In this document: one piece after another, positions 1 through 3,880 of the stretch | Position numbering within the stretch: position 1 is the stretch's first letter | Layout of the letters: the number at the start of each line of letters is the position of its first letter | Virus record (IMG/VR): IMGVR_UViG_2562617087_000024 | DNA: 64,000 nucleotides | Source of the DNA: a virus | Taxonomy: Duplodnaviria > Heunggongvirae > Uroviricota > Caudoviricetes | Reading direction: 5' to 3' (one strand) | Translations under genes and position numbers: made by a program | Notes under the pieces: model-generated | Seen by the model: the letters and a program-made list of their open reading frames with translations, nothing else | Databases searched by the model: none | What the model was told of the DNA's origin: nothing

Positions 1-1
1 C

Positions 2-1438
2 GGCCTGCCGCTCGGGGAATACACCCTGACGGTGCGGGCGATAAACAGCTATGGCCAGCAGGGTGAACCTGCCACCACCACCTTCCGGATTGCCGCACCG
101 GCAGCACCGTCGCGGATTGAGCTGACGCCGGGCTATTTTCAGATAACCGCCACGCCGCATCTTGCCGTTTATGACCCGACGGTACAGTTTGAGTTCTGGT
201 TCTCGGAAAAGCGGATTGCGGATATCAGGCAGGTTGAAACCGCAGCCCGCTATCTTGGCTCGGCGCTGTACTGGATAGCTGCCAGTATCAATATCAAACC
301 GGGCCATGATTATTATTTTTATATCCGCAGTGTGAATACTGTTGGCAAATCGGCATTCGTGGAGGCTGTCGGTCGGGCGAGCGATGATGCGGAAGGTTAC
401 CTGGATTTTTTCAAAGGAGAAATCGGGAAAACACATCTGGCCCAGGAGCTGTGGACGCAGATTGATAACGGTCAGCTTGCGCCGGACCTGGCTGAAATCA
501 GGACGTCCATTACGAATGTCAGCAATGAAATCACGCAGACCGTCAATAAAAAACTGGAAAATCAGAGTGCGGCAATCCAGCAGATACAGAAAGTTCAGGT
601 TGATACAAATAATAACCTGAACAGCATGTGGGCCGTGAAACTGCAGCAGATGCAGGACGGACGCCTTTATATTGCGGGTATCGGTGCCGGTATTGAGAAT
701 ACGCCAGCAGGAATGCAGAGTCAGGTGCTGCTGGCGGCAGACAGGATTGCGATGATTAATCCTGCGAATGGCAACACAAAGCCGATGTTTGTTGGTCAGG
801 GCGATCAGATATTTATGAATGAAGTGTTCCTGAAATATCTGACGGCTCCCACCATTACCAGCGGCGGTAATCCTCCGGCATTTTCCCTGACACCGGACGG
901 GCGGCTGACGGCGAAAAATGCCGATATCAGCGGTAACGTGAATGCGAACTCCGGGACGCTCAACAACGTCACGATTAACGAGAACTGTCGGGTTCTGGGA
1001 AAATTGTCCGCGAACCAGATTGAAGGCGATCTCGTTAAAACAGTGGGCAAAGCTTTCCCCCGGGACTCCCGTGCACCGGAGCGGTGGCCATCAGGAACCA
1101 TTACCGTCAGGGTTTATGACGATCAGCCGTTTGACCGGCAGATTGTTATTCCGGCGGTGGCATTCAGCGGCGCTAAACATGAGAAAGAGCATACTGATAT
1201 TTACTCCTCATGCCGTCTGATAGTGCGGAAAAACGGTGCTGAAATTTATAACCGTACCGCGCTGGATAATACGCTGATTTACAGTGGTGTTATTGATATG
1301 CCTGCCGGTCACGGTCACATGACACTGGAGTTTTCGGTGTCAGCATGGCTGGTAAATAACTGGTATCCCACAGCAAGTATCAGCGATTTGCTGGTTGTGG
1401 TGATGAAGAAAGCCACTGCAGGCATCACGATTAGCTGA
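2..1438 (+). CDS. J: host specificity protein J, C-terminal part (5' end cut by window edge)
   Basis: Reading frame open from window start; translation near-identical to C-terminus of the full-length J at 55937-59413 and matches recalled lambda gpJ C-terminus. Confidence 0.9.
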
Positions 1439-1457
1439 ATTTTATAACCCAGATACG

Positions 1458-1482
1458 GGCGCCAGAAATGGCGCCTTTTTTA
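1458..1482 (+). terminator. intrinsic terminator after J (ggcgcc-loop-ggcgcc + T-run)
   Basis: 6-bp GC palindrome stem followed by TTTTTT directly after the J stop. Confidence 0.6.
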
Positions 1483-1505
1483 TTGCAGAAAAGCGAGAGG
1501 TAATT

Positions 1506-2105
1506 ATGCGTAAATTATGTGCTGTTATTTTGTCCGCAGTAGTCTGGCAGGTCGCCGCTGCTACGCCAGCGAGTGCAGCAGAACATCAGTCCACGCTGAG
1601 CGCGAGGTATCTCCATGCCTCGACGAACGTTCCCGGTAGTGATGATCTGAACGGGATTAACGTGAAATACCGTTATGAGTTTATGGACGCGCTGGGGCTG
1701 ATTACGTCCTTCAGTTATGCCAATGCTGAGGATGAGCAAAAAACGCGCTACAGCGATACCCGCTGGCATGAAGATTCCGTGCGTAACCGCTGGTTCAGCG
1801 TGATGGCGGGGCCGTCTGTACGCGTGAATGAATGGTTCAGCGCGTATGCGATGGCGGGTGTGGCTTACAGCCGTGTGTCGACTTTCTACGGGGATTATCT
1901 CCGCGTAACTGACAACAAGGGGAAAACGCACGATGTGCTGACCGGAAGTGATGACGGTCGCCACAGCAACACGTCTCTGGCGTGGGGGGCTGGCGTGCAG
2001 TTTAACCCGACCGAATCCGTGACCATTGACCTTGCTTATGAAGGTTCCGGTAGTGGCGACTGGCGATCGGATGCATTTATTGTTGGTATCGGATACCGTT
2101 TCTGA
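1506..2105 (+). CDS. lom: Lom/Ail-family outer membrane protein
   Basis: 199 aa with signal peptide and C-terminal YEGSGSGDWR..GYRF as in lambda Lom; RBS gagaggtaatt upstream. Confidence 0.9.
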   Translation: MRKLCAVILSAVVWQVAAATPASAAEHQSTLSARYLHASTNVPGSDDLNGINVKYRYEFMDALGLITSFSYANAEDEQKTRYSDTRWHEDSVRNRWFSVMAGPSVRVNEWFSAYAMAGVAYSRVSTFYGDYLRVTDNKGKTHDVLTGSDDGRHSNTSLAWGAGVQFNPTESVTIDLAYEGSGSGDWRSDAFIVGIGYRF

Positions 2106-2210
2106 CAACAGACGCCGATTTATCTTCTGTAAATATTGTTATGATACGCAGGTTCATCCACCTTATGGGGTGAACTGCGTTTGAGGAAACGTAAAGTTAC
2201 ACTGTCCTGA

Positions 2211-2243
2211 AGCCCGTGGCGTCACTGCTGCGGGCTTTTTTTA
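2211..2243 (+). terminator. intrinsic terminator after lom
   Basis: agcccg...cgggct hairpin followed by T-run. Confidence 0.6.
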
Positions 2244-2256
2244 TTGGTGGAAAAGT

Positions 2257-3561
2257 ATGACAGTAAAAATTTCTGGCGTGCTTAAAGATGGCACAGGAAA
2301 ACCAGTACAGAACTGCACCATTGTGCTGAAGGCCAGACGAACCAGCAGCACGGTGGTGGTGAACACGGTGGCCTCTGAAAATCCGGATGAAGCCGGACGT
2401 TACAGCATGGATGTTGAGTACGGTCAGTACAGCGTCATTCTGTTGGTGGAGGGATTTCCTCCGTCACATGCCGGGACCATCACCGTGTATGAAGATTCTC
2501 AACCCGGTACGCTGAATGATTTTCTCGGTGCCATGTCGGAGGATGACGTCCGGCCGGAGGCACTGCGTCGTTTTGAACTGATGGTGGAAGAAGCGGCGCG
2601 TCACGCTGAGGAGGCGAAGAAGAATGCCGGAGAGGCGGAGACGTCCGCGAGGAATGCCGGCATATCAGCCAGTCAGGCAGAAGAGAACGCTGCAAATGCT
2701 GACACTTCAGCAGGGGATGCATCGGAGTCAGCCCGGCAGGCGGCAGAAAGTGCAGCCGCTGCAAAGCAGTCAGAGGAGGCGTCCTCGTCCTCGGCCTCTG
2801 CGGCCGCTCAAAAAGCCAGTGAGTCATTACAAAGTGCAACAGATGCTGAGTTGTCAAAAAAGACGGCAGAAAGTGCAGCCGGTAATGCAGCCAGGGATGC
2901 AACGACCGCAGCAGAAAAAGCCCGGGAGTCAGCAGAAAGCGCACAGTCAGCGGAACAAAGCAGGATAGCGGCGGAAGAAGCCGTAAACCGAATCCCCACC
3001 GTGGTGGGGCCTCCCGGGCCAAAGGGGGAACCGGGGCCCGCGGGTCCTCAGGGGCCGAAGGGAGATAAAGGAGAGCGTGGAGACACCGGCCCGGCAGGGG
3101 CAACCGGCGAACGGGGACCGGCAGGTGATGCTGGTCCGGCAGGCCCGCAGGGGCCGAAAGGTGACAGGGGAGAGACCGGTCTGACGGGAAATGCAGGTCC
3201 ACAGGGTCCAAAGGGAGACACCGGGGCAGCAGGCCCGGCAGGCCCACAGGGACCGAAAGGAGAAACAGGTGCGGCTGGCCCGGTGGGGGCAACCGGACCT
3301 CAGGGACCGAAGGGCGACCCGGGGGAGACACAAATCCGTTTTCGTCTGGGGCCGGCGAGCATTATTGAGACAAACAGCCATGGCTGGTTCCCGGGTACAG
3401 ATGGTGCGCTCATCACCGGACTGACCTTTCTTGCCCCCAAAGATACCACACGGGTTCAGGGTTTTTTTCAGCATTTGCAGGTCAGGTTTGGTGACGGGCC
3501 GTGGCAGGATGTTAAGGGGCTTGATGAAGTGGGCAGTGATACAGGCAGAACAGGAGAATGA
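2257..3561 (+). CDS. phage side tail fibre protein with collagen-like Gly-X-Y repeats
   Basis: 434 aa; alanine/serine/glutamate-rich coiled region then repeated GPQGPKG/GPAGxxG triplets; position after J-lom. Confidence 0.85.
2990..3340 (+). repeat. collagen-like triplet repeat (coding) within tail fibre gene
   Basis: Tandem Gly-X-Y codon triplets ([25 protein letters not shown]...) visible in translation. Confidence 0.8.
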
Positions 3562-3562
3562 C

Positions 3563-3832
3563 ATGAACATACTAAAAAAACTTATGCAGCGTCTGTGCGG
3601 GCACGGAAAGCATGATGACCGTGAAGACGGGGAGTTACTTACAGCACAACTGCGTCTGGGGCCGGCAGACATCCTGGAGTCCGATGAGAATGGTATTATT
3701 CCGGAGCAGGACAGGGTAATCACGCAGGTGGTGATACTGGATGCGGATAAAAAGCAGATACAGTGCGTGGTAAGACCGCTGCAAATCCTGCGTGCTGACG
3801 GGACGTGGGAAAATATTGGCGGGATGAAGTAA
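3563..3832 (+). CDS. conserved small protein downstream of tail fibre (function unknown)
   Basis: ATG one base after the tail fibre stop, RBS caggagaa upstream; 89 aa; near-identical paralog at 61460-61729. Confidence 0.6.
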   Translation: MNILKKLMQRLCGHGKHDDREDGELLTAQLRLGPADILESDENGIIPEQDRVITQVVILDADKKQIQCVVRPLQILRADGTWENIGGMK

Positions 3833-3880
3833 CCCGACAGCTTCACAAAACCGGAGTCCGGCTCCGGTTTTTGTTGTCAT
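3768..3880 (+). repeat. tail-module terminal repeat, copy 1 (includes terminator aaaaccggag-tccgg-ctccggtttt)
   Basis: Same ~115 bp recurs at 7838-7960 and 61668-61780. Confidence 0.75.

Follow-up and report, generated by a model that had tools for sequence, protein, structure and literature searches.

The present analysis concerns a 64,000-nucleotide stretch of DNA filed as a virus record (IMG/VR IMGVR_UViG_2562617087_000024; "the window" below means this whole stretch) and, within it, a segment of phage tail genes, about 3.8 kb long, that stands at the left edge of the window (copy A) and again some 58 kb further on (copy B). Our results make it very likely that the two copies are the host-range tail ends of two different, related lambda-like prophages, A and B, which lie in head-to-tail tandem and whose tail alleles came from a common mosaic pool. 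The window matches the chromosome of Escherichia coli strain EC4115 (NC_011353.1, 1718274-1782273) at 99.9% over the whole 64 kb, and many O157:H7 chromosomes contain its first 12 kb at 100% identity; it is a piece of an O157:H7 chromosome of the EC4115/TW14359 type, at the ompW site. It starts inside the J gene of prophage A and ends just before the right attachment (att) site of prophage B, so that its content is the end of prophage A and nearly all of prophage B, integrated in tandem.

The main evidence lies in the divergence of the copies. Synonymous divergence (dS) between A and B is 0.32 for J, 0.44 for lom, 0.14 for the side tail fibre gene (stf) and 0.13 for the small open reading frame (ORF) that follows it, with ratios of nonsynonymous to synonymous divergence (dN/dS) of 0.13-0.24. 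A dS of 0.13-0.44 far exceeds the divergence of strains within one E. coli clone such as O157, and the alleles, as working phage genes, must therefore have parted long before this chromosome brought them together. The divergence within the window would then be old allelic variation maintained by purifying selection rather than the decay of a local duplicate, and the likeness of the tails would stem from lambdoid phages drawing their tail genes from a common mosaic gene pool. If one prophage, or its tail segment alone, had been duplicated in tandem at this site and the copies had then diverged, the direct orientation, the collinearity and the equal int/xis type at both left ends would be accounted for, yet we regard such an origin as very improbable. 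The dS is too high for it; the head modules of A and B are unrelated, collinear homology being limited to the tail, the int-xis-exo block and some of the early region; the effector loci differ; and the right end of prophage B (IS1, kinase, DUF4376 fragment, ompW', yciE) is found at 99.5% identity or more in O111, O103 and O145 strains. Copy A is, moreover, 100% identical to the copy A of another strain whose B J C-terminus is about 70% identical to it, the B copies differing strongly. The original prediction for this DNA, made from the letters alone, had called the copies diverging paralogs, a description contradicted by the dS, the unrelated heads, the three att sites described below and the occurrence of the B right end in other serotypes.

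The distribution of the pieces among 5,426 complete genomes points the same way. The tail/nleA end of prophage A was found in 369 genomes and the tandem junction (from the A end to intB) in 84 with a 4-kb query and 90-91 with a 600-bp query; prophage B is therefore a lineage-restricted addition. The B right end was present in 112 genomes, O111, O103 and O145 strains among them, and copy B at 99% or more in only 11 records. An assembly artefact, in which one prophage was assembled twice or joined chimerically, has to be weighed since prophage repeats are a classic source of misassembly. It is scarcely credible here: the copies differ at 6-10% of bases, their flanks are unique, and the identical junction recurs in the 84-91 independently assembled complete genomes, in agreement with the original view that the repeat is real.

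The prophage layout, including the part left of the window, was read from the annotation of the EC4115 record, in which prophage A, a 126-bp ompW 3' fragment, prophage B and another ompW 3' fragment lie, in this order, between an intact ompW on the left and yciE with the trp operon on the right. In prophage A, int and xis stand first; early genes (paa among them), lambda-like heads and the tail genes come next, then J, lom, fibre and small ORF, and finally an effector locus of nleA, nleH1-2, nleF, ISEc8, nleG and espM1; it is an Sp9-type effector carrier (nleA, nleH1-2, nleF, nleG, espM1). Prophage B likewise begins with int, xis and early genes; its heads, which include an HK97-like protease/capsid fusion, are followed by tail, J, lom, fibre and small ORF, and after these come IS1 and a truncated OspG-family kinase. 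It would belong to a type of phage with heads of the HK97 kind, and its right end (IS1 and a truncated OspG/NleH-like kinase) also occurs in other serotypes of enterohaemorrhagic E. coli (EHEC). We rejected its identification with Sakai Sp10, as the Sakai fibre genes of Sp9 (ECs1808) and Sp10 (ECs1992) are far apart by locus tag, and as the right end with three nleG genes sits in strain 2571 on the ydfJ prophage, not on B. The features that bear on the repeat are as follows (protein lengths in amino acids, aa):

1-1438, + strand: copy A, C-terminal part of J, 478 codons (Pfam Ig_J, Ig_J_second, Phage_Tail_Tip, Ig_GpJ_C)
1506-2105, + strand: copy A, lom, an Ail/Lom outer-membrane beta-barrel of 199 aa (PF06316, E=2e-121)
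2257-3561, + strand: copy A, collagen-like side tail fibre of the EPclA type, 434 aa (PF08400, PF01391 and PF06820)
3563-3832, + strand: copy A, small ORF of 89 aa, a stand-alone tail-fibre C-terminal domain (PF06820, E=5e-36)
3833-3899, + strand: copy A, conserved downstream stretch, a GC-rich hairpin and then a T-run (three-way alignment)
7833-7999, + strand: third, partial copy, the last ~24 codons of the small ORF and the hairpin region (BLAST, alignment)
18879-18997, + strand: middle att site, a displaced ompW 3' fragment between prophages A and B (alignment of three att copies)
19043-20182, - strand: prophage B integrase, split in the window into ORFs of 216 and 90 aa
48796-57979, + strand: prophage B tail genes from U/V to the N-terminal two thirds of J, their partner in A lying left of the window
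57980-59413, + strand: copy B, C-terminal part of J; the full gene is 55937-59413, 1158 aa (BLAST, Pfam)
59481-60080, + strand: copy B, lom, 199 aa (protein comparison, Pfam)
60145-61458, + strand: copy B, collagen-like side tail fibre, 437 aa (protein comparison, Pfam)
61460-61729, + strand: copy B, small ORF of 89 aa, a tail-fibre C-terminal domain (BLAST, Pfam)

The original prediction proposed pairwise alignment as a check on the repeat, and self-BLAST of the window finds two collinear blocks in direct orientation at an offset of ~57.9-58.0 kb, so that the regions are related: 5-2095 against 57980-60070 (89.5% of nucleotides over 2096 columns, E=0) and 2230-3899 against 60122-61796 (94.2% over 1680 columns, E=0). 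The spacer between lom and stf is unrelated between the copies (2096-2229, 134 bp, against 60071-60121, 51 bp) and is a small replaced segment within an otherwise collinear repeat. In A the homology stops at 3899, the end of the second block; in B the conserved hairpin stretch continues after the small ORF to ~61823 and is followed by IS1. The predicted gene content of J C-terminus, lom, tail fibre and small ORF was borne out by Pfam. Collinearity also held, while the claimed 95-97% protein identity did not, the values being 92.8% for the J C-terminus (over 474 aa), 81.9% for Lom, 94.7% for the fibre and 96.6% for the small ORF. Nor is the repeat near-identical, as had been said: its span in the window is only 89-94% identical at the nucleotide level and holds 37 exact tracts of at least 30 bp, the longest of 160 bp.

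At the level of single genes, protein comparison confirmed that J reads KYLTAPT in copy A and KRLTAPT in copy B. The start of the copy A J gene lies left of the window and the gene is annotated in EC4115 as host specificity protein J. Both Lom proteins match PF06316 over their full length (1-199 of 199; E=2e-121 and 1e-117), and the EPclA architecture (PF08400 N-terminus, collagen Gly-X-Y repeats and PF06820 C-terminus) is complete in both fibres. The reported difference of one Gly-X-Y triplet between the fibres is real (434 against 437 aa), though it is not an extra triplet in copy B but a 9-bp deletion in copy A: the sequence GGGGAGAGC is carried by all three other fibre copies compared, and only the copy A of this lineage is without it.

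That the segment is present twice is correct as to the two copies and understates the family they belong to. The third, partial copy at 7833-7999 is 92% identical to 3761-3899 and 89.8% identical to 61658-61823 by self-BLAST; it is annotated in EC4115 as a partial tail-fibre C-terminal domain protein and directly adjoins a lambda-type integrase pseudogene, on the side where the 5' end of that pseudogene is truncated. Each of the O157 genomes listed among the matches has 13-17 places that match the 3.9-kb segment. Homology between A and B also extends leftward: measured with the EC4115 sequence upstream of window position 1, it continues for ~8.6 kb beyond the window edge in A, the full collinear tail homology running from about -8558 to 3899 in A and from 48796 to 61796 in B, that is, over 12.5-13 kb (8.06 kb at 96.2%, 2.6 kb at 89.2% and 1.68 kb at 94.2%). 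Left of the window the exact tracts shared by A and B reach 871 bp and ~3 kb are 99-100% identical. The 3.8 kb seen in the window is thus the window-truncated, least similar end of a longer tail homology.

The J gene of prophage A has a 621-bp in-frame deletion at about -506 (EC4115 ~1717767; counterpart in B 56848-57466), which removes the Phage-tail_3 domain (PF13550). The deleted segment is retained in the prophage A of FDAARGOS_293 and in both B copies, and its loss is specific to the copy A of this lineage. Prophage A is probably tail-defective. In copy B, all J domains score above the gathering thresholds (FNIII-A, Phage-tail_3, two Ig-like domains, tail tip fibre and the C-terminal receptor-binding domain).

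The att sites tell how the tandem would have arisen. Alignment of the three att copies reveals a 28-bp core common to all of them, with a phage-type arm in attL(A) and the middle site and a chromosomal arm only in the rightmost site, attR(B), a pattern that fits two successive site-specific integrations. An intact ompW and two ompW 3' fragments likewise indicate, for both prophages, integration in the ompW 3' end with a duplicated att. Each prophage would have used a tyrosine integrase of its own to enter the one 28-bp core at the 3' end of ompW, and the head-to-tail tandem would be the product of those two events. The existence of two lambdoid prophages in the same direct orientation, as originally proposed, is thus upheld by the annotation, the att triplet and the self-BLAST. 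The int-xis-exo blocks of A and B (2.6 kb) are 97.4% identical, the Int proteins, whose genes adjoin ompW, being nearly the same and the Xis proteins identical. The prophage B integrase is intact in EC4115 (376 aa, WP_000113671.1), and the window differs from it by an additional 1 bp at 19622 and 8 bp at 19912-19919. One prophage could also be lost through Int/Xis excision; the B int is split in the window, and the nearly identical Int of prophage A might act in trans.

Exchange among the tail modules has left traces in several genomes. FDAARGOS_293 shares with the window both the tandem and the effector loci; in its prophage A the head and tail genes are HK97-like, J is full-length (frameshifted) and the fibre has 437 aa. 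Among the sites that distinguish this prophage A from the B of the window, those left of a point inside J (at about -1250) are B-like in the window A. To the right of that point, where copy A is Sakai/FDAARGOS-A-like, it is identical to FDAARGOS_293 A at 424 consecutive informative sites. On this pattern copy A is a recombinant with its crossover inside J, and the identity with FDAARGOS_293 A to the right of the crossover makes the 3.8 kb in the window the part that was left unreplaced. The tail of FDAARGOS_293 B contains runs of A-like, B-like and third-donor sites, its J C-terminus being only 69-81% identical to that of the window B, and it is likewise a mosaic.

It could be argued that it is mainly gene conversion within the tandem, that is, concerted evolution, that keeps the tail ends of A and B alike and that the pair is being actively homogenised. 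The tail left of the window is indeed 96-100% identical between A and B and holds the long exact tracts (871 bp at most); copy A resembles B in that part, which the copy A of another strain does not. We nevertheless consider this explanation unlikely, since the span in the window has not been homogenised (89-94%), since copy A is identical over that span to the copy A of a strain whose B is quite unlike the one here, and since a plausible donor for the B-like part of A is the lambda-head phage of strain 2571 (ydfJ/ompW) rather than prophage B.

Larger products of recombination can be seen in the spacing of the two ends of prophage B. The A-to-B junction and the B right end are ~43 kb apart in most O157 genomes; the distance is 389 kb in strain 2571 (NZ_CP038425.1) and 384 kb in YB14-1, with the two ends on opposite strands in both, and it is ~964 kb in FRIK944 and 249 kb in HB6. 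In strain 2571 the left half of B, which comprises int to lysis, the HK97-like heads and the tail, leads into three DUF1076/nleG genes beside ydfJ, where it ends, and the left half of a lambda-head phage is joined to the IS1-kinase-ompW' end of B; this phage is 98.9% identical over 15 kb to the late region of prophage A in the lineage of the window. The arrangement is an inversion of ~389 kb that swapped the right ends of prophage B and the ydfJ prophage. Since the heads of the two phages are unrelated, we place the crossover in the shared tail module; M, L, K and I are the same proteins in the two inversion products. The tail module family, with its 13-17 places per listed O157 genome, does act as a substrate of homologous recombination, and the natural products seen are patchy exchange or gene conversion, end-swapping crossovers and large inversions. 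The original claim that the repeats are recombination substrates is therefore right in kind, as the crossover in the J of copy A, the mosaic B tail of FDAARGOS_293 and the inversion of strain 2571 attest; the specific outcome that it foresaw, deletion or duplication of the 58 kb between the copies, is another matter.

Loss of one 58-kb unit, consisting of the effector locus of A and prophage B from int to J, is possible. Recombination by RecA needs short perfect tracts and drops steeply with divergence, more so when mismatch repair is active. On this basis the 89-94% stretch in the window, whose longest perfect tract is 160 bp, would be a usable but poor substrate, and a deletion would be expected to start mostly outside it, in the 99-100% tail tracts or in the 97% int-xis-exo block. 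The excess of B right ends (112 genomes) over junctions (84-91) is largely made up of non-O157 EHEC with a B-type right end and is no evidence of such a deletion; chimeric queries for the deletion product were dropped, as both parental arrangements would cover them at 80% or more.

Several points weigh against the account given so far. Neither the A-left/B-right product of a 58-kb deletion nor a 58-kb duplication was found, in a survey that did not extend to all genomes. The equation of prophage A with Sakai Sp9 comes from gene content and the published descriptions, not from a direct alignment to the Sakai genome. As to the order of the integrations, B may have entered the attR of A, or A the attL of B. 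Patch donors are deduced from two or three strains, and the A-like runs could stem from a third prophage. Finally, the tail of strain 2571 differs from that of FDAARGOS_293 B across L to tfC, so that the crossover in strain 2571 is placed only approximately.

The repeat is a correct sighting of a known kind of structure: tandem ompW prophages, shared tail modules and prophage rearrangements have all been published. Tandem prophages at ompW (PPompW) in O157:H7, with effector loci and a 21-bp site termed attB-in-PP_1, are described by Nakamura et al. (2021, PMC8112680), where the late regions are highly variable and the early regions conserved, and where a PPompW integrase is one more than 90% identical to EC112648_1574. 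As here, those prophages are lambda-like, lie at ompW with a 121-bp att and form tandem pairs, and their right-end effector locus of nleA, nleH, nleF, espM and nleG, followed by the 21-bp attB, is the same as in prophage A. An exact, unoccupied copy of this site (GTCATGCAGTTAAAGTGGCGG) stands at 18551-18571, at the end of the prophage A effector locus. In the four tandem strains highlighted in the same source, each of the two prophages has the 21-bp attB, and the second also has an nleG variant. In contrast, prophage B of the window lacks the site, with no match at up to 2 mismatches, and its right end consists of IS1 and the truncated OspG-family kinase.

Sakai Sp9, as described by Asadulghani et al. 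(2009, PMC2669165), resembles prophage A in being an effector-carrying lambda-like prophage with morphogenesis defects and an att core of 28 bp, the same length as the core found here. The same paper describes the many lambdoid prophages of O157 as sharing tail genes and as complementing or recombining with one another. Unlike Sp9, whose fibre has 437 aa, the prophage A of the window combines lambda-like heads with the 621-bp in-frame J deletion and a 434-aa fibre. The gene order and the J and Lom families are those of the J-lom-stf-tfa region of phage lambda; in place of the lambda stf and tfa, however, there is a collagen-like EPclA fibre with PF06820, followed by a PF06820-only ORF. The EPclA proteins treated by Ghosh et al. 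(2012, PMC3368898) consist of PfN, coiled coil, collagen and PfC, are 437 aa long and occur once per lambdoid prophage; copy B has the same length and copy A is one triplet shorter.

Homologous prophage segments as recombination sites of large O157:H7 rearrangements are the subject of Fitzgerald et al. (2021, PMC8743559), and the 249-964 kb that separate the B junction from the right end in strain 2571 and others conform to that work. The repeats mapped there had at least 98% identity, at least 5 kb and at least 2 copies, of which the A/B pair falls short (96.2% over 8.06 kb), and the rearrangements reported there are mainly inversions, not deletions between tandem direct repeats. Such repeats matter as they complicate assembly, reshuffle host-range genes (J C-terminus, fibres) between prophages, can move or remove effector loci (nleA, nleH, nleF, espM1) and can alter genome structure between closely related outbreak strains. 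As a correction for the window itself, the 3.8 kb in view is the portion of the longer homology least prone to recombine, and it represents old allelic variation, not a young duplication.

The prophage A effector locus between the copies contains fossils of further phages of the lambda family. The stretch 6560-6845 aligns to the lambda attP (P arm 115/164, core 5/15, P' arm 47/73 including the int-proximal sites) and, by this alignment, is an uncut lambda-type attP (P-O-P') with a different core. It is followed at 6845-7839 by a lambda-Int-like pseudogene (E=1e-131 to lambda Int structures, residues 73-355) that lacks its N-terminus, has one internal stop and is cut off exactly where the third tail-fibre fragment begins (7833). 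The order tail, nleA, attP, int is the vegetative order of lambda. A second stretch, from 10239 to ~10480, has a P arm that matches lambda at 123/164, the core GGCTTTTTATACTAA (10435-10449, 13/15) and a B' sequence of the E. coli bio side, and is bounded by an IS256 remnant and ISEc8; it is therefore a lambda-type attR (P-O-B') with host DNA as next to ybhB-bioA. Its chromosomal homologues are lambda-type attR sites beside ybhB-bioA, and in the K-12-type strain examined the lambda genes ea59 and ea31 adjoin the ybhB-bioA attR site. We also considered the weak repeat 6560-6701/10239-10380 as the attL and attR of a nested prophage, a reading rejected on the alignment to the lambda attP because the left site is an attP (P-O-P'), the right site an attR (P-O-B') and the cores differ.

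These sites suggest that the nleH1-2/nleF block formerly belonged, as its right end, to a phage integrated at the lambda att site of the chromosome, and that the effector locus grew by fusion of the right ends of several phages, a mode of growth of which we found no description in the available parts of the cited prophage literature. As a tentative mechanism, which we think rather doubtful, the small ORF and hairpin may have served as a homology handle by which whole genomes of phages of the lambda att type were captured into the resident ompW prophage through Campbell-type homologous recombination and then mostly deleted, new effector cargo being left behind each time. One fossil of such a capture may be the series of tail, nleA, uncut attP, truncated int and second fibre 3' fragment (3563-7999), and another the nleH1-2/nleF block that ends in an attR with bio-side DNA (10239 to ~10480). 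If true, homology capture would be an att-independent route of effector accretion beside the published integration of prophages into prophages.

The differences between the window and EC4115 are clustered, with ~45 in 2.4 kb at 35647-38011 in the region of a DUF6645 gene and 12 more at 43599-46276 in the terminase/portal region, the remainder of the 64 kb being almost identical; the clusters look like recombination patches between closely related strains. The exonuclease gene (20473-22917) is an intact ORF of 814 aa in the window and frameshifted in EC4115. At the right end of prophage B, after IS1, lies an ORF of 196 aa (62862-63452) annotated as "protein kinase" or "OspG family effector kinase", which may be a truncated NleH-like effector.

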